Assembly: GCA_025062275.1 (NCBI GenBank) | Contig: JANXAP010000020.1 | Coordinates: 19,882-83,881 of the forward strand | Origin: Dehalococcoidia bacterium | GTDB taxonomy: Bacteria; Chloroflexota; Dehalococcoidia; SM23-28-2; HRBIN24 | Length of the DNA stretch: 64,000 bases | Reading direction: 5' to 3' | Shown here: positions 14,327 to 64,000 of the stretch, piece after piece | Position numbering within the stretch: position 1 is the stretch's first letter | Layout of the letters: each line of letters begins with the position of its first letter | Position numbers and translations under genes: made by a program | Notes under the pieces: generated by a model | Told to the model about the DNA's origin: nothing | Database searches by the model: none | What the model saw: the letters and a program-made list of their open reading frames with translations, nothing else

Positions 14327-14668
14327 ATGGGAGGTTTCCACTTCGAGCGCGAGTACCGCACCCCCTACTCCGAGTGCTACACCATCGAGCTGAACGAGGA
14401 CGAGGTGGGGCGAGTAGACCTCCACTACGGCACCGAGGTGGTCTACGCGACGCTGGTGGTGAGCGAGCGGCTGACCCAGGACGAGATCCGCCAGCTCATC
14501 GGCGAGATAGACGAACGCCTGGTGCTCACCTCCGACCCCCTGCGAGAGGACTTCGTGGTCACCGTCTGGGTGGGACGCGAGGAGGGCGTCTACTCCGACG
14601 AGGACCAGGAGGAAGAAGAGGACGAAGAAGACGAGGAGTTCGAGGGCAACGGCTATATGAAGGACTAG
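14327..14668 (+). CDS. hypothetical acidic protein (113 aa)
   Basis: ATG after GAAGGAGG RBS; highly acidic C-terminal tail (DEDQEEEEDEEDEEFEG); upstream part of the track ORF overlaps proA and is rejected. Confidence 0.55.
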   Translation: MGGFHFEREYRTPYSECYTIELNEDEVGRVDLHYGTEVVYATLVVSERLTQDEIRQLIGEIDERLVLTSDPLREDFVVTVWVGREEGVYSDEDQEEEEDEEDEEFEGNGYMKD

Positions 14669-15618: not shown

Positions 15619-15621
15619 GGC

Positions 15622-16560: not shown

Positions 16561-16642
16561 TTATAGGGCCTCCCGGAGCGAGCGACAACGCACCCTGCGG
16601 TCCCCTGGCCTGGCCTTCGCCCTGTCGTTAAACTGCCTCGTG

Positions 16643-18032: not shown

Positions 18033-18042
18033 GCAGGGGACG

Positions 18043-18552: not shown

Positions 18553-18559
18553 GGCCACC

Positions 18560-19543
18560 TCAGTCGGGGTAGCCGTCGGGGTGGGCCAGATGCCACTCCC
18601 AGGCCGAGGCCACCATCTCTTCCAGGGAGGTGTGCCGCGGCTGCCAGCCCAGCACCTCCCTCGCTCGCTGGGCCGAGGCCACCAGCACCGGCGGGTCACC
18701 GGGCCGCTGGGCCTCCCAGCGGACGGGAATGGGGTGTCCCGTCACCCGCCGGGCAGTTTCCACTACCTGCAGATTGGAGAACCCCTGCCCCGTGCCCAGG
18801 TTTAGGGCGCCGCTCTGGCCCTCTCGGGCCAGGTGCTCCAGGGCCAGCACATGGGCACGGGCCAGGTCGACGACGTGGACGTAGTCGCGAACGCAGGTGC
18901 CATCGACGGTGGGGTACTCGGAGCCGTATATAGGCACCGCCTCCATCTGCCCCAGGGCCACCTGCAGCACCCTGGGTATCAGGTGGGTCTCGGGACGGTG
19001 GTCCTCCCCCAGGCGGCCGGCGGCCCCGGCTGCGTTGAAGTAGCGCAGGCTCATGTAGCGCAGGCCGTGGGCGGCCTGATACCAGGGCAGCAACCGCTCC
19101 ACCAGCGCCTTGGACTCGCCATACGGGTTGATGGGGCGTATGGGCATGTCTTCAGTCAGGGGCATCTCATCGGGGGCGCCGTAGACAGCGGCGCTGGAGC
19201 TGAACACGAACAGCCCCACGTCATGGGCCACGCACGCGTTCAGCAAGCAGATGGCGCTGCCCACGTTGTTGGCGAAGTAGCGGCCCGGATGGAGCACCGA
19301 CTCGCTGGCCACCGTATAGGCGGCGAAGTGCATGACAGCGTCCAGCCGTCGGGCCGAGAAGACCTTGCCCAGGGCCTCGTCGTCGCGGGCGTCGGCCACC
19401 ACCAGCTCCGCATCGGGCGGCACGGCCGAGGCATGCCCGCTCACCAGAGAGTCCAGAACCACCACCTCATAGCCCTGGGCCAGCAGCTCCTGCACCGCGA
19501 AGGAGCCGACGTAGCCCGCCCCGCCCACCACCAGCACCCGCAT
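18560..19543 (-). CDS. galE: UDP-glucose 4-epimerase
   Basis: GGAGYVGS Rossmann motif and YGESK catalytic motif. Confidence 0.9.
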   Translation of the reverse strand: MRVLVVGGAGYVGSFAVQELLAQGYEVVVLDSLVSGHASAVPPDAELVVADARDDEALGKVFSARRLDAVMHFAAYTVASESVLHPGRYFANNVGSAICLLNACVAHDVGLFVFSSSAAVYGAPDEMPLTEDMPIRPINPYGESKALVERLLPWYQAAHGLRYMSLRYFNAAGAAGRLGEDHRPETHLIPRVLQVALGQMEAVPIYGSEYPTVDGTCVRDYVHVVDLARAHVLALEHLAREGQSGALNLGTGQGFSNLQVVETARRVTGHPIPVRWEAQRPGDPPVLVASAQRAREVLGWQPRHTSLEEMVASAWEWHLAHPDGYPD

Positions 19544-19553
19544 GGCCGCCAGT

Positions 19554-20816
19554 TTACTCCTCGAAGCGCTTGAAGACCAGACAGGCGTTCTGTCCGCCGA
19601 AGCCGAAGGAGTTCTTCAGGGCTACCCGCACGTCCGCCCGACGGGGCTGATTGGGCACGTAGTCCAGGTCGCACTCGGGGTCTGGATACTCGTAGTTGAC
19701 GGTGGGGTGGACCCAGCCGGCCTCGATGCTTTTGACGACGGCGACGCTCTCCACCGCGCCCGCCGCCCCGAAGCAGTGGCCGATCATGGACTTGGTGGAG
19801 CTGATGGGTATGCGGTAGGCACGCTCGCCGAAGACCTTCTTGATGGCCAGGGTCTCGATGGCGTCGTTCAGGGGGGTGGAAGTGCCGTGGGCATTTATGT
19901 AGTCCACCTCGTCGGGGGCCACGCCCGCATCGGCCAGGGCCAGGCGCATGCAGCGCACGGCCCCGTCGCCGTCGGCACAGGGTGCCACGATGTGGTAGGC
20001 ATCGGCGGTGGCGGCGTAGCCTGCCAGCTCGGCCAGGATGGGGGCGCCGCGGGCAAGGGCATGCTCCAGGCTCTCCAGCACGAAGATGGCTGCCCCCTCG
20101 GCGGCCACGAAGCCGTCCCGCTTGGCATCGAAGGGGCGGCTCGCCTTCTGGGGAGGCTCGTTCTGGGTGGAGAGGGCTCGCATGACAGCGAAGCCGGCCA
20201 GCCCCAGCTCGCACAGGGCGGCCTCCGCCCCGCCGGTTATGACCACGTCGGCCCTGCCGCTGCGGATCAGCTCCAGGGCATCGCCCATGGCCTGAGTGGC
20301 GGCGGCGCAGGCGGTGGTCACCGTATTGTTATAGCCCTTGAGGCCGAACTGCATGGCCACGTGGGCGGCGGCCATGTTGGGCAGCATCTTGGCCATGAAG
20401 AAGGGGTCCAGCCTCATGCCCCCTCTCTCGATGACGGTGCGCATCCCCTCGTCCACATTGGGGAAGCCACCGATGCCCACCCCCAGCAGCACGCCGATGC
20501 GCTCTCGGTCCTCCCGCTCCAGCTTCAGGCCGGCCCCCTCGATGGCCTGACGGGCGGCGGCCACGGCGAACTGGGAGAAGCGGGCCATGCGCCGCGCCTC
20601 CCTGCGGTCCATATAGTCCTCGGGGTCGAAGCCCTTCACCTCGCCGGCGATGCGGGCAGGATAGTTGGACGCGTCGAACTGGGTCAGGTAGTCGATGCCC
20701 GAACGCCCCTCCAGACACCCCTGCCAGAACTCCTCCACCGAGTTGCCCAGGGGGGTGATGGCGCCCATGCCCGTAATGACGGCCCGGCGCCGCTGCTCGC
20801 GCCTCATCCTTTTCAC
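19554..20816 (-). CDS. fabF: beta-ketoacyl-ACP synthase II
   Basis: KAS II catalytic triad context (CAAATQA, HGTSTPLND, GHCFGAAG). Confidence 0.9.
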   Translation of the reverse strand: MKRMRREQRRRAVITGMGAITPLGNSVEEFWQGCLEGRSGIDYLTQFDASNYPARIAGEVKGFDPEDYMDRREARRMARFSQFAVAAARQAIEGAGLKLEREDRERIGVLLGVGIGGFPNVDEGMRTVIERGGMRLDPFFMAKMLPNMAAAHVAMQFGLKGYNNTVTTACAAATQAMGDALELIRSGRADVVITGGAEAALCELGLAGFAVMRALSTQNEPPQKASRPFDAKRDGFVAAEGAAIFVLESLEHALARGAPILAELAGYAATADAYHIVAPCADGDGAVRCMRLALADAGVAPDEVDYINAHGTSTPLNDAIETLAIKKVFGERAYRIPISSTKSMIGHCFGAAGAVESVAVVKSIEAGWVHPTVNYEYPDPECDLDYVPNQPRRADVRVALKNSFGFGGQNACLVFKRFEE

Positions 20817-22147
20817 CTCGCTCTTTTGGCCAACAAGGGCCGGCGGCCTTCAGCCACGAAGGCCAGCGAGCCTGTCAGACATATTAAAGCCCTCCCGCCG
20901 CTTATGGCCAACGCCCGGCCCAGGGCATCTTCGGCGCTGCGGGCCTGGTAGACGGTGCAGCCCGCCTCAGCAAAGGCCGACGCGACCCTGTCGGCGGGCA
21001 TGGCACGCGGATGGTCGAAGGGCGCTGCGATGACGGCCGCGGCGATGGGCGCCAGCTCCCGGGCCATGCCGACGATGTCCTTGTCGGCCAGGGTGCCTAC
21101 CACCAGCACCACCCCTTGCGCCGCGAAGTGTTCCTCCAGCGCCTGCCGCAGACGCCGGGCTGAGTCGCCGTTGTGGGCCCCGTCGGCCACCACCAGGGGG
21201 TCGCGGGAGAGGACCTCCAGCCGCCCGGGCCAGGCGACCTTCGCCAGCCCGCGGGCGATAGCCTCCCCGTCCACCGGCAATCCCTGGCGGGCCAGCGAAT
21301 GGGCCACGGCCACAGCGGTGGCCGCGTTCTCCACCTGGTGCGTCCCCAGCAGGGGCAGACGGGCCTCCAGGGAGCCGCCCTCCCACTCCAGTCGGAAGCG
21401 CTGACCGTCGATGTCCCGCTCCAAGACTCGCCAGCGATAGCGAACGGCCACGTCCACCGTTTCCACGCCGGCGGCAGCTGCCGCCTGCAGGCAGACCTCC
21501 TTGGCCTCGGCGTAGCCCTGGGGAGCCAGGACCAGCGGCCCCGGCGGCCGCACGATGGCCGCCTTCTCGCGGGCGATGGCGGCGGGCGTATCGCCGAGGA
21601 TGGCCGTGTGCTCCAGACTGATGGGGGTGATGACCGAGGCCTCCTTGCGGGGGAAGACGTTGGTGCTGTCCACCCTGCCCCCCAGCCCCACCTCCACTAC
21701 CTGCACCTGGACCCGGTGCTGGCGGAAGGCCAGGAACCCGATGGCCGTCAGCAGGTCAAAGGTCACCAGCTGACGGCCCGGCAGGGAGGGCATGACCGCC
21801 TCGGCGGCGGCCAGCACATCAGCGGCGTGGCGGGAGAATTCCTCCTCGGATATGGGCTGGCCGTCGATGCGCACCCGTTCGCAGTAGGAGTCCAGATGGG
21901 GGCTGGTGTAGAGGCCGGTGCGCAGTCCAGCCTGGCGCAGGACCGACTCCACCATGGCGGCCACGCTGCCCTTGCCCTTGCTACCGGTGATGTGCACCGT
22001 GACCCGACCCAGGTGGGGGTCGCCCAGGCGAGACAGCAGGGCCAGCACCGGTGCCACATCGGGGCGGTCGGCGAAGCGCCCCGACCGCTCGAAGTCGGCG
22101 TAGGCCAGCAGCGCCTCGATGGCCTGCCGGTAATCGAGGTCGGGCAT
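20813..22147 (-). CDS. folC: folylpolyglutamate synthase / dihydrofolate synthase
   Basis: Mur-ligase P-loop HITGSKGKGS and FolC fold; real start is Met48 of the track ORF (ATG 22145-22147) overlapping the upstream stop. Confidence 0.85.
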   Translation of the reverse strand: MPDLDYRQAIEALLAYADFERSGRFADRPDVAPVLALLSRLGDPHLGRVTVHITGSKGKGSVAAMVESVLRQAGLRTGLYTSPHLDSYCERVRIDGQPISEEEFSRHAADVLAAAEAVMPSLPGRQLVTFDLLTAIGFLAFRQHRVQVQVVEVGLGGRVDSTNVFPRKEASVITPISLEHTAILGDTPAAIAREKAAIVRPPGPLVLAPQGYAEAKEVCLQAAAAAGVETVDVAVRYRWRVLERDIDGQRFRLEWEGGSLEARLPLLGTHQVENAATAVAVAHSLARQGLPVDGEAIARGLAKVAWPGRLEVLSRDPLVVADGAHNGDSARRLRQALEEHFAAQGVVLVVGTLADKDIVGMARELAPIAAAVIAAPFDHPRAMPADRVASAFAEAGCTVYQARSAEDALGRALAISGGRALICLTGSLAFVAEGRRPLLAKRAR

Positions 22148-49708: not shown

Positions 49709-49996
49709 CGCGGTAACTCGGCGACCCGAGCCGTGCAGCCGCCGCTCAGCTCCTGCCAGCCGCTCCGGCGGTCAGGGTGCCCTGCGAGAAGGCCTGCCCG
49801 GCCATGGCAGGGCCTCGCCCGGAAATCGCCCCCCATCGGGCGAATGAGACCCCGCACCAGAAGCTCCCCACGGTTGGAAGGTCCCGCTGGATCGCCGCCG
49901 CACGGCCCCGAGGGGGGCCGCTGGCGAGGGCGTGGACAGTTATAATGTTTGCGACCGTCGACTCCTCGTCCCGAGGCGTGCTAGCGGAGGGAAGGA

Positions 49997-50923
49997 ATGG
50001 CCAGCGAGACCCCAGGTAGGGCACCAGCGCCACAGCTGCAGGAGGTCTCTCCCGGCATCTATGCCTATCTCCAGCCCGACTGGAGCTGGTTCCTCAACAA
50101 CACTGGCTTCATCGTCGGCCGAAGGGGCGTCATCGCCGTGGACGCCTGCGCCACCGCCGCCCGTACACAGGCGCTGGCGGAGGCGATAGGACGCATCAGC
50201 CGGGCGCCGGTGCGAGCCCTGGTCAACACCCACCACCACGGCGACCACACCTTCGGCAACTATCGCTTCCCCGGGGCAGCCATCATCGCCCACGAGCTGT
50301 GTCGGCGGCACGTCCTGGAGGTAGGGCTGCGGGTGACGGCCCTGGTCCAGGGGGTGGAGTGGGGCGACTTGGAGGTGGACCCGCCCTTCGTCACGTTCCA
50401 GGACAGCATCACCCTCTGGGCCGACGACCTGCGGCTGGAAGTGATCTACGTCGGGCCGGCCCACACCAGCAACGACGTCGTGGTCTGGGTGCCTGAGCGG
50501 CGAGTGCTCTTCGCCGGCGACGTAGTCTTCAAGGGCTGCACCCCGTTCGTGCTGGAAGGGTGTATCGGCCATTACTTCGAGACCCTGGACAGGCTGAGGG
50601 AGCTGGGGCCGGAGGTAGTGGTCCCCGGTCATGGCCCGGTCTGTGGCCCCGAGGCCTTCGGCGAGGTGGAGGGCTATCTGCGCTTCTTACAGGAAAGGGC
50701 CAGGGAGGCCTTGCGGGCCGGCATCACCGACCCGCTGGAGGCGGCGCGGCAGATAGACCTGGGCCCCTACGCCGAGTGGGGCGAGCGGGAGCGCATCGTC
50801 GGCAACCTCGCTCGCGCCTTCTCGGAGCTGAGGGGGGAGCCGCCCTGCCACCCCCTGGACACGCCGGCCATCGTCGCCCAGATGCAGCAATACCTGGGAC
50901 AGCCATTGAGGAGTCTGGCATGA
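49997..50923 (+). CDS. MBL-fold metallo-hydrolase
   Basis: HHHGDH motif with downstream H and D ligands. Confidence 0.85.
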   Translation: MASETPGRAPAPQLQEVSPGIYAYLQPDWSWFLNNTGFIVGRRGVIAVDACATAARTQALAEAIGRISRAPVRALVNTHHHGDHTFGNYRFPGAAIIAHELCRRHVLEVGLRVTALVQGVEWGDLEVDPPFVTFQDSITLWADDLRLEVIYVGPAHTSNDVVVWVPERRVLFAGDVVFKGCTPFVLEGCIGHYFETLDRLRELGPEVVVPGHGPVCGPEAFGEVEGYLRFLQERAREALRAGITDPLEAARQIDLGPYAEWGERERIVGNLARAFSELRGEPPCHPLDTPAIVAQMQQYLGQPLRSLA

Positions 50924-51915
50924 AGCTGGGACGCATCTCCGTCCAGGGGCCCGACGGCCCCGAGGCGCGCCTGGTGCTGGCCCTGCCGGACGAGGGGAGG
51001 GCCATCGACCTGGCTGCTGCCGAGAGGCTGCGGCTCGAACGTCGGGGGGCGGCCCCCGAGGCCGCTCGCCGCCTGGCCCGAGCGCTCTTTCCGGGCAGCA
51101 TGGCGGCGGCCATCGCCCTGGGAGACCAGTTCCTGGAGGCGGCAGAAAGGGCGGCGGATGCCGACCGGGGCGATGCCTCCCTCCCGCTGGAGGGGCTGCG
51201 CTGGCTGCCGGCCATCGACCCGCCGGTGATGCGCGACTGTCTGGCCTTCGAGGAGCACATGGTGAACTCGTCGGCGCGGCTGGGGCGCTCCGTTCCCCCG
51301 GTCTTCTACCAGCTCCCCATCTATTACAAGGGGAATCCTCACAGCCTCATCGGCCACGAATGGGAGGTGCCGTGGCCCGGCTACACTCAGGCCATGGACT
51401 ACGAGCTGGAGCTGGGCTTCGTGGTGGGCAGGAGCGGACGAGACCTGACTCCCGAGGAGGCCCGAGGCTGCCTGTTCGGCGTCACCATCTTCAACGACTT
51501 CAGCGCCCGCGACATCCAGGGGCAGGAAATGGGGGGCGGCCTGGGGCCGGCCAAGGGCAAGGACTTCGCTACCGCCGTGGGGCCGTGGATCGTGACGGTG
51601 GACGAGCTGGACGTGATGTCCCTGGAGATGGTGGCGCGGGTCAACGGCGAAGAGTGGTCGCGAGGCTCCTCGGGCACCATCATGTGGCGGCCCGAGGAGA
51701 TCCTGGCCTACATCTCCTGGGGCGAGGAGCTGCACCCCGGCGACCTCATCGGCTCCGGCACCGTAGGCCGAGGTTGCGGCCTGGAGCTGGGACGCTTTCT
51801 CAGCCCGGGCGACGTGGTGGAGCTGGAGGTCTCGGGCATCGGCGTCCTGCGCAACCGCCTGGGCCAGCCCCAGCCGGTGCGGTGGCGCCCTTCGCCCCGT
51901 CAGCCCTCGGCCTAG
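50920..51915 (+). CDS. fumarylacetoacetate hydrolase (FAH) family protein
   Basis: FAH-fold C-terminal motifs (GTIMWRPEEILAYISWGEELHPGDLIGSGT); ATG overlaps the MBL stop (ATGA). Confidence 0.85.
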   Translation: MKLGRISVQGPDGPEARLVLALPDEGRAIDLAAAERLRLERRGAAPEAARRLARALFPGSMAAAIALGDQFLEAAERAADADRGDASLPLEGLRWLPAIDPPVMRDCLAFEEHMVNSSARLGRSVPPVFYQLPIYYKGNPHSLIGHEWEVPWPGYTQAMDYELELGFVVGRSGRDLTPEEARGCLFGVTIFNDFSARDIQGQEMGGGLGPAKGKDFATAVGPWIVTVDELDVMSLEMVARVNGEEWSRGSSGTIMWRPEEILAYISWGEELHPGDLIGSGTVGRGCGLELGRFLSPGDVVELEVSGIGVLRNRLGQPQPVRWRPSPRQPSA

Positions 51916-52238
51916 CAGGCTAGCGGGCCAGCCCGTATTCGGAAACGAAGTGCTCCCAGACCAGGCGCGAGAGGCGGGCACCGAAGGAGTAGCCCGCGAA
52001 CTCGGTCGGCGCCCTCTCCGACGACCACGACTATGCGGGGCCCGGGTTACCGACTGAAAGCCTGAGAGGCCCCGGCCCACTCCGGGCAGGCAGCCCGAGG
52101 GACCAAGGGCCCACCTATCGGCAACGACGTAGGCCTTAGAGGAGTCCTTGTCAACTGCCGACCCTATGGGCCATAATGCCAGTGCACAGCCTGAGCGCTC
52201 GCTAGGAGAAAGGCGGGCCGAGGACGGGGGTACAGGAG

Positions 52239-53489
52239 ATGAAGTTCGGTCTGTTCTACGAGTTGCAGCTCCCCAAGCCCTACGACGCCGACCAGTGGTT
52301 TCCCGACCAGGAGCACCGCATCGTCAAGGAGGCCCTGGAGCAGATCGAGCTGGCCGATAAGCTGGGCTTCGACTACATCTTCATCGTGGAGCACCACTTC
52401 CTGGAGGAATACTCTCACTCCTCGGCGCCGGAGGTCTTCCTGGCCGCAGCCAGCCAGCGCACCAAGAACATGCGGCTGGGCCACGGCATCGTCCTCATGC
52501 CCCCGCCCTACAACCACCCGGCGCGGGTGGCCGAGCGCATCGCCATGCTGGACCTGGTCTCCGACGGCCGCGTCGAGTTCGGCACCGGCGAGTCCTCCTC
52601 CGAGATGGAGATGGGCGGCTTCGGCGTCCGCCGCGAAGAGAAGAAGATGATGTGGGAGGAGGCCACCCGCGAGTGCCTGCGCATGATGACCGAGGTGCCC
52701 TACCCCGGCTACGAGGGCAACTACTTCGCCATGCCCTCCCGCAACGTCATCCCCAAGCCCCTGCAGAAGCCCCACCCGCCGGTCTGGGTGGCCGCCTCCC
52801 GCCGCGAGACGACCATGGTGGCGGCGCGGCTGGGCATCGGCTCCCTGGGCTTCGGCTTCGAGACGCCGGAGGAGGCCAGGGAGCGGGTCCAGGAGTACTA
52901 TCGCCTCATCCGCGAGGAATGCTTCCCCATCGGCAAGGCCATCAACCCGGCCCTGGCCGTCCTGTCGGTGCTCTCCTGCTTCGATAGCGACGAGGAGGCC
53001 ATCGCCAAGGGGCTGGAGGGTGCCCAGTTCTTCTCCTACTCCCTGGGCTATTACTACAGCCCCTTCACCGGCGGCAGCCATCGCCCCGGCCAGGTGAACC
53101 TCTACCGCCAGTTCAAGGACACGCCGCCGGAGCAGCGCTGGGGAGGGCTGGCCGAGTGGTTCCGGGGCTTCGCCGGCTACCGCGGCGGCTTCGGCGAGGA
53201 GCCCAAGGACGAGGTGGGCCGCGCCCTATGGCGGGCCGCCCAGCGGGGCGGCTGCATCGGCACCCCCGAGTTCATTCGCGAGACCCTGTTGCGCTACGAG
53301 GAGGCCCACCTGGACGTGATGCTGTTCGTGGCCCAGTGCGGCGCTCGCAAGCACGAGGACATCATGGACTCCCTCTACCGCTTCGGGACCAAGGTGCTGC
53401 CCGAGTTCAAGGAGCGGCACGAGCAGCACCTGCGCTGGCGCCAGGAGCAGCTAGCGCCCGTTGACTACCCCATCGTCTCGTCCATATGA
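52239..53489 (+). CDS. LLM-class flavin-dependent oxidoreductase (luciferase-like)
   Basis: MKFGLFYELQ N-terminus and luciferase-like TIM-barrel motifs. Confidence 0.85.
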   Translation: MKFGLFYELQLPKPYDADQWFPDQEHRIVKEALEQIELADKLGFDYIFIVEHHFLEEYSHSSAPEVFLAAASQRTKNMRLGHGIVLMPPPYNHPARVAERIAMLDLVSDGRVEFGTGESSSEMEMGGFGVRREEKKMMWEEATRECLRMMTEVPYPGYEGNYFAMPSRNVIPKPLQKPHPPVWVAASRRETTMVAARLGIGSLGFGFETPEEARERVQEYYRLIREECFPIGKAINPALAVLSVLSCFDSDEEAIAKGLEGAQFFSYSLGYYYSPFTGGSHRPGQVNLYRQFKDTPPEQRWGGLAEWFRGFAGYRGGFGEEPKDEVGRALWRAAQRGGCIGTPEFIRETLLRYEEAHLDVMLFVAQCGARKHEDIMDSLYRFGTKVLPEFKERHEQHLRWRQEQLAPVDYPIVSSI

Positions 53490-53496
53490 TGCGGCC

Positions 53497-53823
53497 GTGG
53501 CCGGCAAGGTAGACCGCATCCAGGACCCGGAGCTGAGGGCCTCCCTGCAGGCCGCCCAGGAGTCGCTTCGTCGGGGCGACTACCAGGACACGGTGCGCCG
53601 CTCGGCCGAGGCCTTCCTGGAGATGCTGCGCCGCCGTCCCGAACTCCTGCAGGGCCAGGAGGGCATAAGACGCATCTTCATGTTCCCGCGCCTGGGGGTG
53701 GACCTGGTGGTAACGCCAGGGAACCCTCCCGCGCTCCAGTTCCAGCGTGAGCGCTTCAGCTTCTCGGAGGCAGTGACTTACCTGGAGTTCGCCACCGAGC
53801 AGCTGCTGCGGGAAGGCATGTAG
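53497..53823 (+). CDS. hypothetical protein (~108 aa)
   Basis: GTG start placed after the upstream stop; no domain recognised. Confidence 0.35.
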   Translation: MAGKVDRIQDPELRASLQAAQESLRRGDYQDTVRRSAEAFLEMLRRRPELLQGQEGIRRIFMFPRLGVDLVVTPGNPPALQFQRERFSFSEAVTYLEFATEQLLREGM

Positions 53824-53977
53824 CGGCCCATTAACCCCCGGGGCCGACGAGAACCGCGGCAGGCCTCGCGCCCTCCACCTCGCCAGCATCGCCCGGGCGC
53901 TCGTTGCAGGACGGCCGGTTGCCCCTGCGGGGCGCCTGCTCATGTGCACCCCCCATCCGTTGGAGGGCGGGCAGCCG

Positions 53978-55405
53978 TCAGATGTCGTAGTACAGGTAGA
54001 ACTCGTAGGGGTGGGGGCGCAGGCGCACCGGGTCCACTTCCCGTCGCCGCTTGTATTCCAGCCACGTCCCCAGCAGGTCGGACGTGAACACCCCGCCCCG
54101 CAACAGGAACTCGTGGTCCTCCTCCAGCTCTCGCAGCGCCTCGTCCAGGCTGCCCGGCACCGTGCGCAGGCCGGCCAGCTCCTCGGGCGAAAGCTCGTAG
54201 ACGTCGGTGTCCAGGGGGTCGCCGGGGTCCATCTCGTGGAAAATGCCGTCCAGCCCGGCCATCAGAATGGCAGCGAAGGCCAGGTAAGGGTTGCAGGAGG
54301 GGTCGGGCGTGCGGAACTCGATGCGCTTGGCCGCCGGGCTGCGGGAGTAGACGGGGATGCGCACCGCCGCCGACCGGTTGCGCTGGGAGTAGACCAGGTT
54401 CACGGGGGCCTCGAAGCCCGGCACCAGCCGCCGGTAGGAGTTGGTGGTGGGGGCGATGAGGGCGCAGAGGGCGCGGGCATGCCGAAGCAGCCCGCCGATG
54501 AAGTACATGCCCAGCAGGCTGAGCTGGGCATAGCCCTCGGGGTCGTAGAACAGGTTCTCGCCGTCCTTCCACAGGCTCACGTGCACGTGCATGCCCGAGC
54601 CGTTGTCGCCGAAGAGGGGCTTGGGCATGAAGGTGACCGTTTTGTCGTGCTCCCGGGCCACGTTGCGCAGGATGTACTTGTAGAGCATCACCTGGTCGGC
54701 CATGCGGGTCAGGGTCTGATAGCGCATGTCTATCTCACCCTGGCCGGCGGTGGCCACCTCGTGGTGGTGCACCTCGATGTCGATGCCCGCCTCCATCATC
54801 TTGAGGATGGCGATGGAGCGCAGATCCTGCAGGCTGTCGGTGGGCGGTGCAGGGAAGTAGCCCTCCTTGTAGCGGGGGCGGTGGCCCAGGTTTTTGCCCT
54901 CCCGCCCCGAGTTCCAGGCCCCTTCCTCCGAGTCCACGAAGTAGTAGCCGCAGTGCTCGTTCTGGTCGTAACGGACGCTGTCGAAGATGAAGAACTCCAC
55001 CTCGGGGCCGAAATAGGCCGTGTCGGCGACGCCCGACTCCCGCAGGTAGGCCTCGGCCTTCTGGGCCACGTAGCGGGGGTCGCGCCAGTAGCGCTCGCCC
55101 GTCACCGGGTCGCGCACGTCGCAGATGACTGACAGGGTGGGCACCCTGTAGATGGGGTCCACGAAGGCGCTGGACGGGTCGGGCACCAGCAGCATGTCCG
55201 ACTCCTGGATGTGCTGGAAGCCGCGGATGGAGGAGCCATCGAAGCCGATGCCGTCGCGGAAGACCCCCTCGTCCAGCGCCCTGGCCGGTATGGAGAAGTG
55301 CTGGAGGGTGCCGGGCAGGTCGGTGAATTTCAGGTCGACGATCTGGATGCCGCGCTCGCGGCAGAGGGCGATGACCTCGCCGGGGCTCCTGGGCCATCTC
55401 TCCAC
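53978..55405 (-). CDS. glnA: glutamine synthetase type I
   Basis: GS-I signatures ([17 protein letters not shown], adenylylation-region NPYL...) over 475 aa. Confidence 0.95.
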
Positions 55406-55419
55406 CCCTCTTCACCTCC

Positions 55420-56826
55420 CTAGGCGTTCTGGCCTTCGCCTTCCTCACCGGTCCCCTTGAGGCCGGGGACGCGCCGCACCAGCTCCTCCAGCCTGACGCC
55501 GGTGAGGGCCTCGATGATGGGCGGCAGCTGGGCGATGACCTCGGCCACGTCGCGGGTGACGCGGCTGGCGCCGGCGGCGCCGTCGGCCCCGCCCGAGACG
55601 ATGACGATGCGCTCGGTGCGGGAGAGGGGCTGGGCCACCGCCTCGGCCAGCCGGGGCAGGATGTTGACCAGCATCTCGGTGACGGCAGCCTGGTTGTAGC
55701 GGGCCCAGGCCTCGGCCTTGCGGTCCATGGTCTCGGCCTCGGCCTGTCCCTTCTCGCGGATGACGTCGGCCTCGGCCAGGCCCACCGCCCGCACTCCCTC
55801 GGCCTCGCCCTGGGCCTCTGTCTGGCGGCGGTAGCGCTCGGCCTCCGCCAGCTCCTGGATGCGCTGGCGCTCGGCCTCGGCCGGCTTGATGACCGAGGCC
55901 ACCAGCTCCTTCTCCTTGCGCAGGATCTCTTTCTCCTCCAGTTCGGTGCGCAGCTCCTTCTCCAGGATGTCGAGCTGGACCTCCTCTCGCTTCACCAGCT
56001 GGGCGGTCTTGTAGCGCTGCAGGTCGTAGGCCAGGTCGGCTTCGGCGCGGCGCTGAGCTATGGCCGCCTCCACTTCGGCCCGCTTCAGCTCGTAGTCGCG
56101 GCGGGCGTCCTCGATCTTCATGTCGGCCTGATAGCGGAAGGTCTTGGCCTCCTCGTCGGCCCTGGCCTCGCCGATGATGGCGTCCCGCTTCACCTGGGCG
56201 GTGCGGGGGCGGCCCAGGGCCTCCAGGTAGCCGCGGGGGTCGGCGATGTTGCGCACCGTCAGGGAGACCACCTCCAGGCCCATGCGGTCCAGGTCCTGGC
56301 TGGCCAGGGCCTTCACCTGCTCGGCGAACTCTCGACGCTTGGTGTAGAGGTCCTCGATGGAGACGGTGCCCAGGACGGAGCGCATGTGCCCCTCCACCAC
56401 CTGCAGGGCGGTGCGCATCACCTCCTCCTGGGGGCGCGACAGGAAGTGCTCGGCCGCCCGAGCGATGGCCCCCTCCTCGCCCTTGACCTTGACGTGGGCC
56501 ACGGCGTCCACCGCCACCGGGACGCCGTGGACGGTGTAGACCTCCGGCGTGCGCACCTCGAAGCTCATCAGTTCCAGGGAGAGGCGCCGCGCCTGCTCGA
56601 CGATGGGCCAGACTACCGTGCCGCCGCCCCAGACGATGCGGTAGCCCAGGGTCCGCAGGCGGCCCTCGGGGTCGGTGACGGTGCGCCGTCTGCCCGCCAC
56701 GATGAGCACCTCATTGGGGCCGACCTTGGTATAGCGGGCTGCCGCCACCGGCAGCAGCACCGGCCAGAAAAGCAGCCAGGCCAGGCCCCAGAGGACATAG
56801 TAAATGGCGCTGCCGCCCTGCCTCAC
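55420..56826 (-). CDS. flotillin-like SPFH/band-7 protein
   Basis: N-terminal TM segment, SPFH domain, long Glu/Ala/Arg-rich coiled-coil flotillin tail. Confidence 0.85.
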   Translation of the reverse strand: MRQGGSAIYYVLWGLAWLLFWPVLLPVAAARYTKVGPNEVLIVAGRRRTVTDPEGRLRTLGYRIVWGGGTVVWPIVEQARRLSLELMSFEVRTPEVYTVHGVPVAVDAVAHVKVKGEEGAIARAAEHFLSRPQEEVMRTALQVVEGHMRSVLGTVSIEDLYTKRREFAEQVKALASQDLDRMGLEVVSLTVRNIADPRGYLEALGRPRTAQVKRDAIIGEARADEEAKTFRYQADMKIEDARRDYELKRAEVEAAIAQRRAEADLAYDLQRYKTAQLVKREEVQLDILEKELRTELEEKEILRKEKELVASVIKPAEAERQRIQELAEAERYRRQTEAQGEAEGVRAVGLAEADVIREKGQAEAETMDRKAEAWARYNQAAVTEMLVNILPRLAEAVAQPLSRTERIVIVSGGADGAAGASRVTRDVAEVIAQLPPIIEALTGVRLEELVRRVPGLKGTGEEGEGQNA

Positions 56827-56832
56827 GGCGCA

Positions 56833-58129
<1,297 letters not shown>

Positions 58130-58765
58130 TCACCTGGCATAGGCGCGCTCGCCGTGCTGGGCCAGGTCCACACCCAGCAGCTCCTCCCGCGGGCTCACCC
58201 TGATGCCCAGAGTCCAGTCCAAGAGCTTCAGGATGACGAAGGTCATGACGAACGAGTAACCCCAGGTGGCGCCGATCCCCGACAGCTGGGCCAGGATCTG
58301 CTCCGGCCGCCCGTCTATCGCCCCGCCGATGCCGCCCTGGAAGCCTGCCGTCTGGGTCACCAGCGAAGTGGCGAAGATGCCCGTGGCCAGGGCGCCCCAG
58401 GTGCCGCCCATGCCGTGCACCGCCCACACGTCCAGGGAGTCGTCCACGTCCAGCCAGTGCTTAACCCGCGCCGCCCCGTAGCAGATGACCCCCGCCCCGG
58501 CGCCGATGACGAGGGCCGGCAGGATGTTGATGTAGCCGTCGGCGGCGTCCCACGCCCCCACGAAGCCCGAGGCGGGGGTGATGGCCACCAGCCCCGCCAC
58601 CGCCCCTGTGGCGGCGCCGGTGACGCTGGGCACCCCCTGGTAGAGCCAGCTCATGGCCAGCCAGGCCAGGGCAGCGGCCGCCGCCGCCGTGTTGGTCACC
58701 ACGAAGGCGTTGGCCGCCGAGGCGCCGGCGGCCACGGCGCTGCCGGCGTTGAAGCCGAACTCCAC
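58130..58765 (-). pseudogene. amt: ammonium transporter Amt, 5'-truncated (C-terminal ~210 aa only)
   Basis: Strong Amt similarity from the FGFNAGSA motif to the C-terminus; the upstream in-frame sequence is not Amt-like and TM1-5 (~200 aa) are absent anywhere nearby. Confidence 0.6.
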
Positions 58766-58766
58766 T

Positions 58767-59010
58767 GAAACGGACCCGAGCGCCCCCGAAGGGAACACAG
58801 ATACCGCCTGGAAACGCACGGAAACACCTGAAGGCCCTGGAGTGGAACCTAGGGGAACCGACTGCCCCGTTATGCTTCGCCCCGTTGATGACCAATTTGA
58901 TGACCAAATGCTGAGAAAGTGAGCCGATTGAAACAGTTGGAAACACTTTCGGTATTTGAATTGTTTCACTGGAGTGCCCTGGAGTGCCCTGTAGAGGAAT
59001 CTAGTGCCCT
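58767..59010. repeat. lower-GC (~50%) region with phased GnAAC pentamers and three sets of short tandem repeats
   Basis: GAAAC/GGAAC at ~58767, 58792, 58811, 58821, 58844, 58854, 58930, 58940, 58963(rc), including three pairs spaced exactly 10 bp; ttgatgaccaa x2; ggagtgccct x2 (+1 partial). Confidence 0.6.
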
Positions 59011-59087
59011 TGAGAGGAAGTCTCAGACCGTTACGGGCTAGAAGAGGCAGCCTGACGACACGTGCACCGGATCTCTCGCGCAAGGTC

Positions 59088-59116
59088 TTGACAGCGCCCT
59101 CACTCGCTTGTATCCT
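59088..59116 (+). promoter_or_regulatory. candidate promoter TTGACA-N17-TATCCT for the tad operon
   Basis: Consensus -35 with a plausible -10 about 40 nt upstream of the cpaB RBS GGAGGTGG. Confidence 0.4.
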
Positions 59117-59156
59117 TCCTGGCGACGGTTCGGTACCTCTGGCGGAGGTGGCCGGT

Positions 59157-59915
59157 ATGACAAGCGTGGCCAGGCGGGAGGCGAGGACAGGCCGTCTCGA
59201 CCTGCGCCTCGTCCTGGGCCTCGGCATCGCCCTCGCAGCCTTCCTCATCGGCATCCAGGTCTACTCCGCGGGTCAGCCCAAGAGCGTGGACGTGCTCGTG
59301 GCCGCCCGTGACCTGCCCCAGGGCGCCGTCCTGGGCGACGGTGACCTGAGGGTTGAGAGCGTGCCGGTGAACGACCGGCTGCGGCAGTACCTGGTGGCGG
59401 CGTCGGCCAGGGCTGATGTGGTAGGGAAGGCGACGGCGAGGCCTTTGCGGGCCGGGGAGCCCATCACCATGTCGTCCCTCACCCAGGGGCTGCCCCTTGA
59501 GGCTGACGAGGTGGCGCTGGCGCTGCCGGTCCTGGACCGCATCTACGTCCCCTACCAGGTGGAGAAGGGGCAGCGGGGCCTGCTCTACGCCATCGGCGCG
59601 GGGCAGGGCGGTGCCCAGCAGGCGGTGCTGGTGAGCGAGCGGGTGCGGGTGCTGGAGGTGGTGCGCTCCCGCCAGCAGGCCGGGACCGGGGGCGAGGTGC
59701 AGGGCGCTCCCACCAGCGTGACGCTGGCGGTGCCGCGCGAGGAGGCGGAGCTGGTGTCCCGGGCCATCGCCCAGAACATCGTCGCCCTGGCGGTCCTGCC
59801 GGCGGGGGTACAGGCGCCGGCCGTGCCCAGGGCGGGGCAGGGGACGACCCTGCCGGCGCCGGGAGGGGCGGGCGCCGGCACGCCGGCCGCGACCGCCACG
59901 CCGGCGGCACGGTAG
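59157..59915 (+). CDS. cpaB: Flp pilus assembly protein CpaB (SAF/RcpC domain)
   Basis: N-terminal TM anchor then SAF-domain pattern (VLVAARDLPQGAVL...); Ala/Pro-rich tail. Confidence 0.8.
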   Translation: MTSVARREARTGRLDLRLVLGLGIALAAFLIGIQVYSAGQPKSVDVLVAARDLPQGAVLGDGDLRVESVPVNDRLRQYLVAASARADVVGKATARPLRAGEPITMSSLTQGLPLEADEVALALPVLDRIYVPYQVEKGQRGLLYAIGAGQGGAQQAVLVSERVRVLEVVRSRQQAGTGGEVQGAPTSVTLAVPREEAELVSRAIAQNIVALAVLPAGVQAPAVPRAGQGTTLPAPGGAGAGTPAATATPAAR

Positions 59916-59927
59916 CCAGGAGGAGCC

Positions 59928-61133
59928 ATGAGGGAAGAGGTGTACGGCGCCGTGGCGGGCACCGAGCCCCCCGAGGGGAGGGCGTGGCGCGTCCAGCCTC
60001 GGGTCATCGTGGGCGTGGACAGGCAGCGGGCGTCCGGCCTGAGACAGGCCCTCATGGCGGCAGGCCTGGAGGTGGCGCCCGGCCTGACCATGGAGGACGT
60101 GCTGCGCTATGCGGCGGAAGGGAGGGGCGACCTGGCGCTCGTGTCCGGCAGCTTCCGGGGGGTGACGTCCGAGCGGCTGGACGAGCTGCGCGCCCTGGGC
60201 CTGCCGGTGGTGGTCATGGCCAGGGACGACGACTCGGCGCGCTACATGGGCCGGGGCTACGTCGTCCTGCCCGACCGCTTGCCCCCCGAGCAAGTGACGG
60301 AGGCGGTGCTGGCCGTCCTGGAGGGCCGTATGGCGCCCTCGCCGGCCGGGACGGCACCCCCCACGCCGGCGGTCCCGGAGGAGGAAGGGGAGGAGGGCAA
60401 GGGGAGGCTGGTGACGGTCTGCGGCCTCAAGGGCGGGTCGGGCAAGACGACCCTTGTCCTCTCGCTGGCCTACGCCATTGGCCGGGCCGGGCGACGGGCA
60501 TGCGCCCTCTCCCTGGACCCGGTGGCGAGCGACTTCCAGGCCTACCTCGGCCTCGATGTGGGCGACGGCATCGCGGTGGCAGTAGGCAGCTCGGAGATGG
60601 AGCAGGCGGTGGCGAGGGAGCTGAGGGCCGTCGCCAAGGGGTGCGACGTCCTGTGTGGCCCCTTCCGGCCCATTGGGATGCGGGCCGTCACGGGGGAGCT
60701 GGCGAGGCGGGTAGTGGCGTTCCTGCGGCGCCGCTACGACGTCGTGCTGGTGGACGCCGGCAACTACCCCACCGAGCACCCTGCGGCCGGCTGGGCCATG
60801 GAGGCGGCAGACCAGCTGCTGGTGGTCATCACGCCCGAGTTCGTGAGCATCTACCGGGCGCATGTGAGCATGGAACGGCTGCAGGAGCTGCGCCGTGGCC
60901 GCTGGACGGGCATCGTCATGTGCCGCTACCGGCGCGGCCGGCACCACTGGACGGAGCACGAGGTGCGGGACGAGCTGGGGCTGCCCATCGTGGGCGTGGT
61001 GCCCGATGACGAGAAGGGGGCGGCGCGGGCGCTGGACCGGCAGGCGCCCCTTGTGGCCGTGGGCGGCAGGGCGGCAGCGGCCATAGAGAGGCTGGCGCGG
61101 CAGCTGCTGGCGGTGGAGGTGGCGGCGCGATGA
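59928..61133 (+). CDS. cpaE: CpaE/TadZ pilus-assembly ATPase: receiver-like N-domain plus MinD/ParA-type ATPase
   Basis: Deviant Walker A GLKGGSGKTT in the C-terminal domain; N-terminal CheY-like pseudo-receiver region. Confidence 0.8.
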   Translation: MREEVYGAVAGTEPPEGRAWRVQPRVIVGVDRQRASGLRQALMAAGLEVAPGLTMEDVLRYAAEGRGDLALVSGSFRGVTSERLDELRALGLPVVVMARDDDSARYMGRGYVVLPDRLPPEQVTEAVLAVLEGRMAPSPAGTAPPTPAVPEEEGEEGKGRLVTVCGLKGGSGKTTLVLSLAYAIGRAGRRACALSLDPVASDFQAYLGLDVGDGIAVAVGSSEMEQAVARELRAVAKGCDVLCGPFRPIGMRAVTGELARRVVAFLRRRYDVVLVDAGNYPTEHPAAGWAMEAADQLLVVITPEFVSIYRAHVSMERLQELRRGRWTGIVMCRYRRGRHHWTEHEVRDELGLPIVGVVPDDEKGAARALDRQAPLVAVGGRAAAAIERLARQLLAVEVAAR

Positions 61134-62422
61134 CCCTGCGCATGGGGCCGGACGACGGCATCCTCCCCTCCCTGGAGGAGCAGGTGAGGGAGGTGATCCG
61201 GCGGGCGCCGCCGGATGAGGTGCTGGCGCCCGACGGCGCCGAGCGGCTGCGGCGGCGGGTGATGGGGTTCGTGGAGGAGTACAACCGGCGCCGCCAGCTG
61301 ATGGGGTATCCGCCCTTGGCCGGGGCGGAGCGGCTGGCCGAGGAGCTGCTGCGGCAGGTCCTGGGTGCCGGCCCCTTGCAGCCGCTGCTGGACGACCCCG
61401 ACGTGGAGGAGATCATGGTCAACGCCCCCGACAACGTGATGGTGGTGCGGGAGGGGGAGATCGAGGTGGCGCCGACGGTCTTTCGCGACGACGAGGAGGT
61501 GCTGGAGCTGGCGCAGCGGCTGGTGGGGCTGCGCGGGGAGAGGCTGGACTATTCGCAGCCGGTGGTGGACGTGATGCTGCCCGACCGGGCGCGGCTGCAC
61601 GCCGTCATTCCGCCCATAAGCGAGCATGTGGTGCTGACCATCCGCAAGTATACGGTGCGGGCGGAGGAGCTGTCGCAGCTGGTGGAGCTGGGCACATGCA
61701 CCGAGGAGGTGGCCCGCTTCTTGGAGGCGCTGGTGCTGGCCCGCAAGACGATCCTCGTGGTGGGCGGGACGTCATCGGGCAAGACGACCATGGTGAACTG
61801 CCTGGGCAACTGCATCCCGCCCAAGGAGCGGGTGGTAAGCATCGAGGACCGGGTGCGGGAGCTGCGCTTCGGCAGCCTGGCCAACTGGGTGCCCCTCGTG
61901 ACGCGTGGCCCCAACGCCGAGGGCGTGGGGGAGATCACCATGCAGCAGCTGGTGAAGGAGTCGCTGCGCATGCGGCCCGACCGCATCGTCATCGGCGAGA
62001 CGCGAGGTTCCGAGGCGCTGGACTTCCTGCGGGCGGTGACGAGCGACCACCCCGGGAGCCTCTCCACCATCCACGCCATGGGCGGTAGGCATGCCATGGA
62101 GCGGGTACGGATCTATGCCCAGATGGACCCGCGCCTGGCGCCGCCGCCCCACGTGGTGGACGAGCTGGTGGCGGAAGGGATCCAGTTCGTGGTCCACATG
62201 GGGCGGGTGCCGCGCTCGAGGCTGCGGCGGGTGCTGTCCGTCTGGGAGGCGACGGGCATGGAGCGGGAGGGGCCGCGCAGCACCTTCGTGGGCAACGACA
62301 TCTTCCGGCGCGGCGAGGACGGGCGGCTCCACTTCACGGGGGTGAGGCCCCGCTGCGCGCGGGAGGTGGAGCACCTGGGGCCCTTCCCGTGGAGCGCCAG
62401 GTCATTCTACGTGGGCGAGTAG
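61130..62422 (+). CDS. cpaF: CpaF/TadA type II/IV secretion-family ATPase
   Basis: Walker A GGTSSGKTT, Asp box, Walker B and His box of the T2SS-E/VirB11 family. Confidence 0.9.
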   Translation: MTLRMGPDDGILPSLEEQVREVIRRAPPDEVLAPDGAERLRRRVMGFVEEYNRRRQLMGYPPLAGAERLAEELLRQVLGAGPLQPLLDDPDVEEIMVNAPDNVMVVREGEIEVAPTVFRDDEEVLELAQRLVGLRGERLDYSQPVVDVMLPDRARLHAVIPPISEHVVLTIRKYTVRAEELSQLVELGTCTEEVARFLEALVLARKTILVVGGTSSGKTTMVNCLGNCIPPKERVVSIEDRVRELRFGSLANWVPLVTRGPNAEGVGEITMQQLVKESLRMRPDRIVIGETRGSEALDFLRAVTSDHPGSLSTIHAMGGRHAMERVRIYAQMDPRLAPPPHVVDELVAEGIQFVVHMGRVPRSRLRRVLSVWEATGMEREGPRSTFVGNDIFRRGEDGRLHFTGVRPRCAREVEHLGPFPWSARSFYVGE

Positions 62423-62547
62423 AAGGAGGTGAAGGGCTAGGAAGAGGTCCCGAGGGTGAGGCAGGGCGGGAGGCCCGCCCTGCCGGGGGAGCCGGCCGCC
62501 CCTGCCCCTGCCAGGACCGGGGGGCGGCCGGGCACACGCCCGCAGCG

Positions 62548-63618
62548 ATGATACATCCCCCCGGCCGAGAGCGCCAGGCCTCCTGCCCACCTCCTGGGGA
62601 GAGCCCGCAAGCCGTGGCCACGGCCCTTGCCCTGACCGTCGTCATCGCGGCCTTCCCCTTCCCGGAGATACCGCGCCCTTCGGGGGCGCTCTTCGCCATC
62701 CTCCTGGCCGTCGCCGCCCTCGGGGTCTACCTGGCCCTCTCGGAGAGGGCGGCGAGCCTCTTCATGCGGGCTGCTGCCGCGGCGGGCGGGGCCGTGCCGG
62801 GAGGGGCACGACCCCCCGTGTGGCATCCCGACGGCGTGAGGGAGCTCCTGGACGAGGCGGGCTACCACCGCGTCACGCCCCTCGCCTTCTACGGTGCCTG
62901 CGCCGCCGGTGCGGTCCTGGGGGCGCTGGTGGGGAACCTCCTCGCGCCGGGCGTGGCCGTGGTGATGGCCGCCGGCGCGGTGGGCGGCTTCATGGTCCCG
63001 TTCCACCTGGTGACCAGGCAGGCCGATGCGGTGGCCAGCAGGCGGCGGGGGCAGTTCGCCGAGGCGGTGGAGGTGCTGCGGGGCCTGATGCGCAGCGGCC
63101 ACGGCCTTGAGGGCAGCATCGCCTTCCTGGCCGAAAGAGGGCCGAAGCTGATGCAGCCGGTCATGCAGGAGGCGCTGGTGGCGCTGCGCACGGGCGGCAT
63201 GTACGAGGCGGCGGAGGTGCTGCGGCGCCGGGTCGCCTCCTATGACGGCGACCGGCTGGCCCTTGCCCTGGCGGCGGCGGTGGCCTACGGCGGCGGGAGC
63301 GTGGGGGCGGTCATCGAGGAGGTGGCGAGGGCGGTGAGGGACGACCTGCTGGTGCGGCGGGAGGCGGAGGCGGAGATGGCCAGGCAGGAGCTGGCGGCGC
63401 GCATCATCGGCGGCATGCCCATCGTCATCCTGGCCGCCATGTTCCGCTTCTCGCCGGAATATGCCGCCGTCTACCGGGAGCCGCTGGGGCAAGGGGTGCT
63501 GGCGGTCATGTTTGCCCTCATCGTGCTGGGCTACGTGCTCATGCGCAGGGGGATGCAGCTGCCCCGGGAGGGGAGGCTCCAGGTGAACCCGGCGCTCATA
63601 GGGGAGGCGCGGGCGTGA
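62548..63618 (+). CDS. tadB: TadB pilus-assembly inner-membrane protein (T2SS-F domain)
   Basis: TM helices flanking a cytoplasmic T2SS-F-like domain; ATG 62548 chosen; Gly/Arg-rich 5' part of the track ORF rejected. Confidence 0.7.
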   Translation: MIHPPGRERQASCPPPGESPQAVATALALTVVIAAFPFPEIPRPSGALFAILLAVAALGVYLALSERAASLFMRAAAAAGGAVPGGARPPVWHPDGVRELLDEAGYHRVTPLAFYGACAAGAVLGALVGNLLAPGVAVVMAAGAVGGFMVPFHLVTRQADAVASRRRGQFAEAVEVLRGLMRSGHGLEGSIAFLAERGPKLMQPVMQEALVALRTGGMYEAAEVLRRRVASYDGDRLALALAAAVAYGGGSVGAVIEEVARAVRDDLLVRREAEAEMARQELAARIIGGMPIVILAAMFRFSPEYAAVYREPLGQGVLAVMFALIVLGYVLMRRGMQLPREGRLQVNPALIGEARA

Positions 63619-64000
63619 TGGAGCTGCCGCCGGCCGGTGGAGTCCTGGCCTCGGCCCTTGGTGGCATAGGGGTCTTCCTCGTGACACGGGCGGTGCTGGA
63701 CCGCCCCTTCCGGTCGCGGCGGGTGGCGCGGCTGCGGCGCATCACCCCTGTGGAGCGGCCCCTGATAGGCGAGGAGCGGCAGGAGGCGCCCCTCTTCCGG
63801 ACGCCCCTCCTGGAGGAGCTGGTGGGCCAGCCCCTGCGGCGGGCGGGCGAGGTGCTGGCGGGCGTGCTGCGGATGGTGGGCGGCCCGGAGGAGCTGGCGA
63901 GCAAGCTGGAGAGGGCCGGGACGGGCATGTCGCCGCCGGCCTACTACGGGCAGCGGCTCCTGTGGTTCCTGGTGGGGTGCATCATCGCTGCCATGGTGGG
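63618..64000 (+). CDS. tadC: TadC pilus-assembly membrane protein (partial, continues beyond window)
   Basis: ATG overlaps the tadB stop (TGATG); N-terminal TM then T2SS-F-like cytoplasmic segment; truncated by the window end. Confidence 0.6.
   Translation, partial: MELPPAGGVLASALGGIGVFLVTRAVLDRPFRSRRVARLRRITPVERPLIGEERQEAPLFRTPLLEELVGQPLRRAGEVLAGVLRMVGGPEELASKLERAGTGMSPPAYYGQRLLWFLVGCIIAAMV

Follow-up and report, generated by a model that had tools for sequence, protein, structure and literature searches.

An amt gene split mid-frame at the probable right attachment site of a ~165-kb integrative element in an uncultivated Chloroflexota lineage

Introduction

Why does an intact glnK (P-II) gene stand behind only half of an ammonium transporter gene? 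In the window, by which we mean the whole 64,000-nucleotide stretch that was analysed, the minus-strand ORF upstream of glnK resembles Amt/AmtB in its C-terminal part only, and a tad pilus operon runs divergently from it. The initial annotation described a gene truncated at its 5' end and advised a check for mis-assembly. Here we ask where the missing half is, what separates the two halves, and what the separation would mean for the host.

Results

The amt piece and its neighbors in the window

The minus-strand ORF matches the ammonium transporter family (Pfam PF00909, Ammonium_transp, E=5e-51) with residues 166-372, which cover positions 205-399 of the 399-position profile, and it does not match over the full profile with its 11 TM helices. 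As judged from its sequence, the piece is a fragment of a family member and not a functional Amt/AmtB channel. These limits agree with the earlier statement that only the C-terminal half, from FGFNAGS onward, is present. Using as tblastn queries two longer Amt homologues that reach upstream of the breakpoint (P0002 and P0003), we detected no N-terminal half in the 64-kb window, in keeping with the annotation's remark that the space up to the divergent tad operon is too short for TM1-5. Within the same 64 kb there is no second amt or P-II gene either.

The ORF continues upstream of the Amt-like part (Table 1), and its first 164 codons fall in a stretch of 52% GC versus ~72% GC for the genome. 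They have no homologue among 5.8 billion proteins; the annotation had described the in-frame upstream stretch as not Amt-like. Because this upstream part is low in GC and without homologue, hence non-coding, we regard the 374-codon ORF as an accidental fusion rather than a gene. An Rfam search of the low-GC stretch gave no family at gathering thresholds and noise only at E up to 10; a known RNA was dismissed as an explanation for it, with nothing in Rfam and no tRNA nearby.

On the other side, glnK begins 3 bases downstream of the amt 3' half. A 321-aa ORF (56833-57798, minus strand) that belongs to no Pfam family shares 11 nt with the end of glnK; all near-identical contigs keep it in this place, with a flotillin-like gene and glnA on its other side. 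In a relative of 90% identity (L001), homology stops inside this ORF, at window 57562.

Table 1. Coordinates of features in the window and at the matching ends of the element in the sister assembly (L006, L013)
Feature	Position	Strand	Remarks
Probable secondary attachment site, empty, GTTCGAGGGCAACG	14638..14651	+	Last codons of gene 14328..14668; occupied in L008
glnK (P-II), intact	57788..58126	-	Pfam P-II 1-102/102, E=6e-32
amt C-terminal half (~210 codons + stop, roughly TM6-11)	58130..58760	-	Host side of attR
Fusion ORF, 374 aa	58130..59254	-	Read-through from the P' arm into the amt 3' half; from the ORF list
Putative att core/direct repeat GTTCGGCTTCAACG, 14 bp, W-F-G-F-N codons	58747..58760	-	attR
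Right arm (P'), non-coding, 52% GC, 396 bp	58761..59156	.	Also the upstream region of the tad operon
Tandem pair of TGGTCATCAA, candidate arm-type binding sites	58885..58906	-	Only 2 copies in the window
Promoter-like site TTGACA-17-TATCCT	59088..59116	+	Faces the tad operon; consensus match only
cpaB/rcpC-like, first tad operon gene	59157..59915	+	Pfam SAF, RcpC; L006 411-1169
TadZ/CpaE-like ParA-family ATPase	59928..61133	+	Pfam CbiA/AAA_31; identical protein on GCA_033581795.1 contig 2
CpaF/TadA secretion ATPase	61130..62422	+	Pfam T2SSE (L006); nearest plasmid matches annotated CpaF family protein
tadB-like and start of tadC-like	62614..64000	+	L006 3868-4872 and 4872-5837, Pfam T2SSF; runs past the window end
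IS genes	L013 11223-14167		Full-length IS256-family transposase, IS982 fragment, 5'-truncated IS110-family (RNA-guided) transposase
Tyrosine integrase, 381 aa	L013 14560-15705	-	Pfam Phage_integrase and SAM-like N-terminal domains; phrog_1 E=1e-70
Excisionase-family protein	L013 16842-17330		TIGR01764 47.1 bits (cutoff 28.8); Pfam HTH_17

Intact alleles and the exact breakpoint

Contigs carrying an intact amt were found through the 321-aa protein encoded downstream of glnK, which is identical on four public contigs. The window is 99.6% identical at the DNA level to the first of these alleles (L002, a 133-kb JGI contig), 99.75% to L004 and 100% to L003. In every comparison, the identity ends exactly at window 58760/58761, inside the W-F-G-F-N codons of the WFGWFGFN motif (...TGG TTC GGC TGG/GTT CGG CTT CAA CG..., with the slash at the break), and homology to L001 reaches its limit at the same base as homology to L002 and L004. 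The true DNA breakpoint lies 5 bases before the annotated feature end at 58765.

Both L002 and L004 contain an intact amt of 427 aa, preceded by trxB, trxA, holA and an aspartate kinase gene, and L003 begins with an intact junction, so that the site is empty in close relatives. From the break to window 46836, where the L002 DNA that was compared ends, the window and L002 are collinear. Among GTDB representative genomes, the scan pattern matched the amt of three (L010-L012), and all three have the gene intact.

Amt proteins of ~207 aa recur among the homologues, and we considered whether they reflect a widespread split at the motif. This was rejected, given that each of them either begins at an internal Met that is conserved ahead of WFGWFGFNAGS or sits at a contig edge; among these proteins a non-Amt tail occurs only in P0121, described below. 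Gene calling divides amt into a pair of neighboring ORFs in two other relatives, of 345+51 aa in L001 (4326-5548) and of 205+177 aa on an 8,971-bp JGI contig (P0130 and P0001). Unlike the split by the element, these are probably frameshifts in GC-rich MAG assemblies. L011 (DATLZD010000051.1) has a hairpin-like inverted duplication in amt-glnK at its contig end (1-1247), where 1-831 and 818-1247 match one window region in opposite orientations, probably an assembler artefact. Inside trxB the identity of L011 to L002 falls, from ~99-100% down to ~86-90%, pointing to a chimera or to a boundary of recombination. We discarded a hotspot of recombination at the attachment site as the cause of this fall, which lies ~1.3 kb off.

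The missing half in a practically identical genome

Assembly GCA_033581795.1 (NCBI label Chloroflexota bacterium) represents practically the same genome as the window. Its contig 21 (L003, 8868 bp) corresponds to window 49934-58760 at 100% identity and opens with another 41 bases in which amt continues intact. L006, which is the end of contig 2 of that assembly (JAVQSQ010000002.1, 180,292 bp) and is offset from window coordinates by +58746, corresponds to window 58747-64000 with one mismatch in 5254 positions, at 61837. As these two contig ends show, the sister assembly breaks at the junction that the window spans. At its other end, contig 21 stops in intergenic DNA at window 49934, where collinearity with L002 is unbroken and no repeat is detectable among the loci compared.

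When the N-terminal 217 aa of the intact Amt were used as a query, they retrieved P0121 from JAVQSQ010000002.1, with 100% identity over the 217 aa. This protein of 242 aa is Amt up to ...LLWFGWFGFN and then continues with 24 unrelated residues and a stop. A search for the N-terminal half elsewhere in the genome, which the annotation had proposed, is thus answered by P0121, ~165 kb away: the canonical amt-glnK unit is indeed disrupted, and the gene is split rather than truncated.

The DNA around P0121 (L013) carries ask, holA, trxA, trxB, the amt 5' half, IS genes, an integrase gene, an excisionase-family gene and a gene for a helicase/primase-like AAA_25 protein, in this order. The R..HxxR..H..Y residues are visible in the integrase sequence, and the TIGR01764 match makes the excisionase-family protein a putative recombination directionality factor. 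The three IS-type genes lie within 3 kb between the left junction and the integrase, which they have pushed away to ~4 kb from its attachment site. The left junction, the integrase and the size of 165 kb are read from this sister assembly, of near-perfect identity, and not from the window's own contig.

The two junctions and in-silico excision

The same 14 bp, GTTCGGCTTCAACG, stand at both junctions. The left one, attL, reads ...GGCTG-GTTCGGCTTCAACG-GCGACGTCACC... (L013 10654-10667), and the right one, attR, reads on the minus strand of the window (58760-58747) ...TTTCAGTGGA-GTTCGGCTTCAACG-CCGGCAGC... On contig 2 the two copies are in direct orientation, 164,918 bp apart, and the empty sites in L002 (9039-9052), L004, L010-L012 and L001 have a single copy, so that a direct-repeat core is present at both junctions and single in the empty site. 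Joining L013 10001-10667 to window 58746-58130 in silico gives a 427-aa ORF with no internal stop, in which 4 nt and 1 aa deviate from the intact L002 gene. Together, the two fragments make up a complete Amt/AmtB family member.

The central 4 bp are host-type (GCTT) at both attL and attR; for a tyrosine recombinase, this requires either the same core in attP or mismatch repair. No contig joining both arms, that is, a circular attP junction, was found. One metagenome contig (L009, see below) was considered as the excised attP form and rejected, its far side being host DNA (a gene tail and an MFS transporter gene) without arm motifs.

At the start of contig 21 the 14-mer comes with 41 bases of amt 5' sequence, and at the end of contig 2 it comes with 41 bases of the arm. 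The sum of 41+14=55 would be the vertex that, in a k=55 de Bruijn graph, the empty-site path has in common with attL and, at the other contig end, attR has in common with attP. This geometry of the contigs, from which and not from reads the argument is drawn, suggests that element-free and possibly also excised molecules were present in the GCA_033581795.1 sample.

The element arms

The right arm, 97-100% identical across L006-L009, always has its terminus at one particular base, and the left arm comprises ~550 bp (L013 10668-11222). Two motifs are common to both arms and otherwise absent from the window: TTGGTCATCAAA, present twice in tandem and in direct orientation, and a GAAACAGTTGGAAAC-type motif in inverted orientation. 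For TGGTCATCAA we found 2 copies in the window versus 0.03 expected, and within the element loci it is confined to the arms; the P arm has a matching tandem pair with the same orientation (L013 10878-10899). From their sequence and placement, these motifs are plausible candidates for arm-type sites of the integrase or the excisionase.

A consensus scan of the right arm found one promoter-like site versus 0.1 expected, and it found no sigma-70-like promoter in the arm facing the amt 3' fragment. Over its first ~100 bp, the left arm is a diverged but significant match to the host DNA that follows the L009 junction on its right, with a local alignment score of 33 versus maxima of 18 in 2000 shuffles and 17 among 598 real window segments. 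No exact arm matches exist in IMG/VR. The ORF that runs out of the arm into varying partners raised the idea of a shufflon or of C-terminal cassette switching, which was rejected because the arm peptide has no homologue and its partners are unrelated housekeeping genes.

Mobility and target specificity

An exact 31-mer from the terminus of the right arm, used as a probe, identified three further metagenome contigs (L007, L008 and L009). All of them carry the arm and the tad operon with 97-98% identity to the window or to L006 over up to 12.4 kb, and in all of them the arm ends at the same base and is joined to different host genes. In L008, and likewise in L007, the arm is joined to the final 10 codons of a small gene with an acidic tail, beyond which L008 is collinear with window 14635-21263 at only 83% identity. 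In L009 it is joined to the tail of another ORF, followed by the MFS transporter gene. Because the element is 97% identical between hosts whose backbones are only 83% identical, a recent horizontal transfer is indicated. In the window, the small gene (14328-14668, plus strand) follows proB/proA, has an extremely acidic tail (...DEDQEEEEDEEDEEFEGNGYMKD) and is intact.

The three targets, GTTCG-GCTT-CAACG in amt, GTTCG-AGGG-CAACG and GTTCG-ACCG-CAACG, share GTTCG-N4-CAACG. The pattern GTTCGNNNNCAACG has 2 matches in the window versus 0.07 expected, namely the occupied amt site and the site that is occupied in L008. Each attR is host-type throughout to the right of ...GTGGA, while GGA is element-type; if the cleavage points are the same each time, the crossover would map to GTTCG. 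In attP sites it is common to find the 3' end of the target gene. Since the left arm includes such an end from the L009 gene, in diverged form, this gene is probably the primary site; amt and the small acidic gene would then probably be secondary sites.

No close relatives of the element were found in the plasmid, phage and IMG/VR collections searched, and the integrase relatives in IMG/VR reach only 25-30% identity. A search of the literature gave no account of integration into amt and no mention of the accession JAVQSQ.

The tad operon and the contents of the element

The tad operon had been treated as a neighboring chromosomal operon; it is instead the terminal cargo of the integrated element. 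Shadow ORFs run antisense to its genes, for instance one of 619 aa at 59100-60959 on the minus strand. Such long antisense ORFs, expected at 72-80% GC, are not genes.

In the ~10 kb of the left end and 12 kb of the right end that were read, there are no T4SS or relaxase genes, and these 22 kb of the 165 kb contain no virion structural or packaging genes. Read at ~22/165 kb, both ends included, the element could be composite, and it may be an ICE, a prophage, an integrated plasmid or a plain island. A small IS110 or bridge-RNA-like element was considered as the cause of the split and set aside: the IS110-type gene is truncated, and the linkage between arm and tad operon is kept over at least 12 kb.

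Discussion

Origin of the split

Taken together, the position 58760/58761 is very probably the attR of a site-specific integrative element of ~165 kb that has integrated into amt. The locus shows what is expected of a tyrosine-recombinase element: an integrase near one end, an excisionase-family gene, direct repeats and empty sites. The element covers the window from 58761 to beyond 64000, its left end being seen in GCA_033581795.1, and the host gene is cut within the WFGFN codons. Its integrase would have recombined attP with a look-alike in amt that shares the 14 bp GTTCGGCTTCAACG, with the crossover in or next to GTTCG. The amt 5' half keeps its promoter and encodes a half-channel of 218 aa with a nonsense tail of 24 codons, and the 3' half and glnK are left behind 165 kb of foreign DNA, cut off from the amt promoter. 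Precise excision by integrase and excisionase would restore amt.

We weighed other origins of the same arrangement. In an assembly artefact, a chimeric contig would have been joined at a short shared sequence and amt would really be intact. In favor of this, the two sides of the junction are separate contigs in GCA_033581795.1, contig 2 ending 14 bases past the break, and L003 begins 41 bases upstream of the break with an intact amt, so that an intact junction exists in the sample. However, the reciprocal junction lies inside a 180-kb contig and predicts this attR, 14-bp repeat included, and in three more contigs, taken from other datasets, the arm stops at this very base; the 41+14=55 geometry would moreover reflect a real k=55 fork between integrated and empty forms. 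Given the reciprocal attL in an independent assembly and the same arm end in three other contigs, mis-assembly, which the initial annotation had raised, is very unlikely indeed. A partial duplication, with an intact amt-glnK elsewhere and a second, 5'-truncated copy beside the tad locus, could account for a contig 21 that is short (8.9 kb), broken at both ends like a collapsed two-copy repeat and intact at its start. Against it, the 5' half too breaks off at the 14-bp repeat, where it is fused to the integrase-side arm; as the halves are reciprocal, no surplus amt copy is required, and contig 21 is not a bounded repeat unit, since the window and L002 stay collinear past 49934 without a break. 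We consider such a duplication to have very little probability.

The junctions themselves bear on two further explanations. A giant DDE-type transposon could have produced the 14 bp as a target-site duplication with no integrase-mediated recombination, which would fit the host-type sequence of both copies, central GCTT included, the inverted GAAACAG-type motifs near both ends and the transposase genes near attL. But the termini are not inverted repeats, the left arm starting with GCGACGTCACC and the right arm ending with TTTCAGTGGA, with only sub-terminal motifs in common. The 10/14 bases shared by three independent targets and the ~100 bp of homology between the left arm and the L009 target gene are both typical of attP/attB systems. 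In addition, an integrase and excisionase pair sits at the end of the element, and the IS256, IS982 and IS110 genes are small separate copies or fragments, making DDE transposition a very improbable origin. Alternatively, without any mobile element, the host chromosome may have been inverted or translocated between a pair of look-alike sites. The arm in L008 does lie beside the homologue of window 14635, formally as it would after an inversion of 14635-58760, yet the small gene at 14328-14668 is intact in the window, so there is no reciprocal breakpoint. The arm and tad operon are 97% identical between backbones that are 83% identical, which fits horizontal transfer and not an ancestral rearrangement, and the integrase module sits at the other junction. 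A host rearrangement is accordingly very doubtful, and site-specific integration into amt stands as the explanation that we prefer.

Consequences for the host

No sigma-70-like promoter faces the amt 3' half and glnK, and ammonium transport and GlnK expression are therefore probably lost while the element is integrated; from the sequence, carriers of the element are likely to lack the Amt/GlnK pair. One may ask whether the element acts as a reversible nitrogen-uptake switch, in which integration would silence amt and uncouple glnK, excision would restore both, and the two forms would coexist. The 14-mer coding for WFGFN is conserved in the amt of every relative examined, and a hint toward coexisting forms comes from the intact junction at the start of contig 21, as the same MAG sample carries attL. 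Such a switch, if real, would give Chloroflexota a counterpart to active lysogeny or to the heterocyst nif-gene elements. A regulated element would be fixed at its site in the lineage; here, the closest relatives are empty, and other genes are occupied in L008 and L009. With the site empty in close relatives and other genes occupied elsewhere, an opportunistic integration is indicated rather than a domesticated switch, which we regard as unlikely.

The split changes how this region should be annotated. The amt piece is half of a gene split by a mobile element, and not a decayed pseudogene or an assembly fault, and the tad operon is island cargo and not core genome. The locus provides a cleanly delimited, very large integrative element in uncultivated Chloroflexota, with both att junctions, a target consensus and candidate arm sites, as well as evidence of transfer between hosts that are ~83% identical. 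For physiology, carriers probably lose the ammonium channel and normal GlnK expression, which affects how nitrogen metabolism is read from MAGs. For MAG assembly, it illustrates that element polymorphism breaks contigs at predictable k-mer offsets.

Comparison with known systems

As an event, the splitting of amt is of an ordinary kind; what is unusual is how clear its signature is. Like the islands, ICEs and temperate phages that use lambda-type tyrosine integrases, the element has an integrase and an excisionase-family gene at one end, core direct repeats, arms with repeated motifs, empty sites in relatives and secondary sites elsewhere, and its left arm duplicates the 3' end of a target gene. 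Unlike them, it reaches ~165 kb, belongs to an uncultivated Chloroflexota lineage and has a Tad pilus operon abutting an att arm. Integrative elements usually occupy sites at 3' ends and repair them, whereas the amt site lies mid-gene and the gene is destroyed.

Gene-interrupting elements whose excision reconstitutes the gene are known from B. subtilis, with SPbeta in spsM and skin in sigK (PMC4191935, PMC5499854), and from heterocyst-forming cyanobacteria, with the nifD, fdxN and hupL elements (PMC4874684). As in these systems, the amt gene is split in the middle of its ORF by an element with its own recombinase, and precise excision, here in silico, restores the frame; like the heterocyst elements, the present one interrupts a gene of nitrogen metabolism. 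SPbeta and skin differ in using serine recombinases, and all of these elements are fixed at their sites across strains, unlike the amt element.

The cargo, finally, recalls the Tad 'widespread colonization island', a name that implies horizontally mobile DNA. The order cpaB, tadZ/cpaE-like, cpaF, tadB, tadC and flp pilin is the same here; in comparison with that island, the vehicle and its att site are visible at this locus, where the tad promoter region doubles as an att arm.
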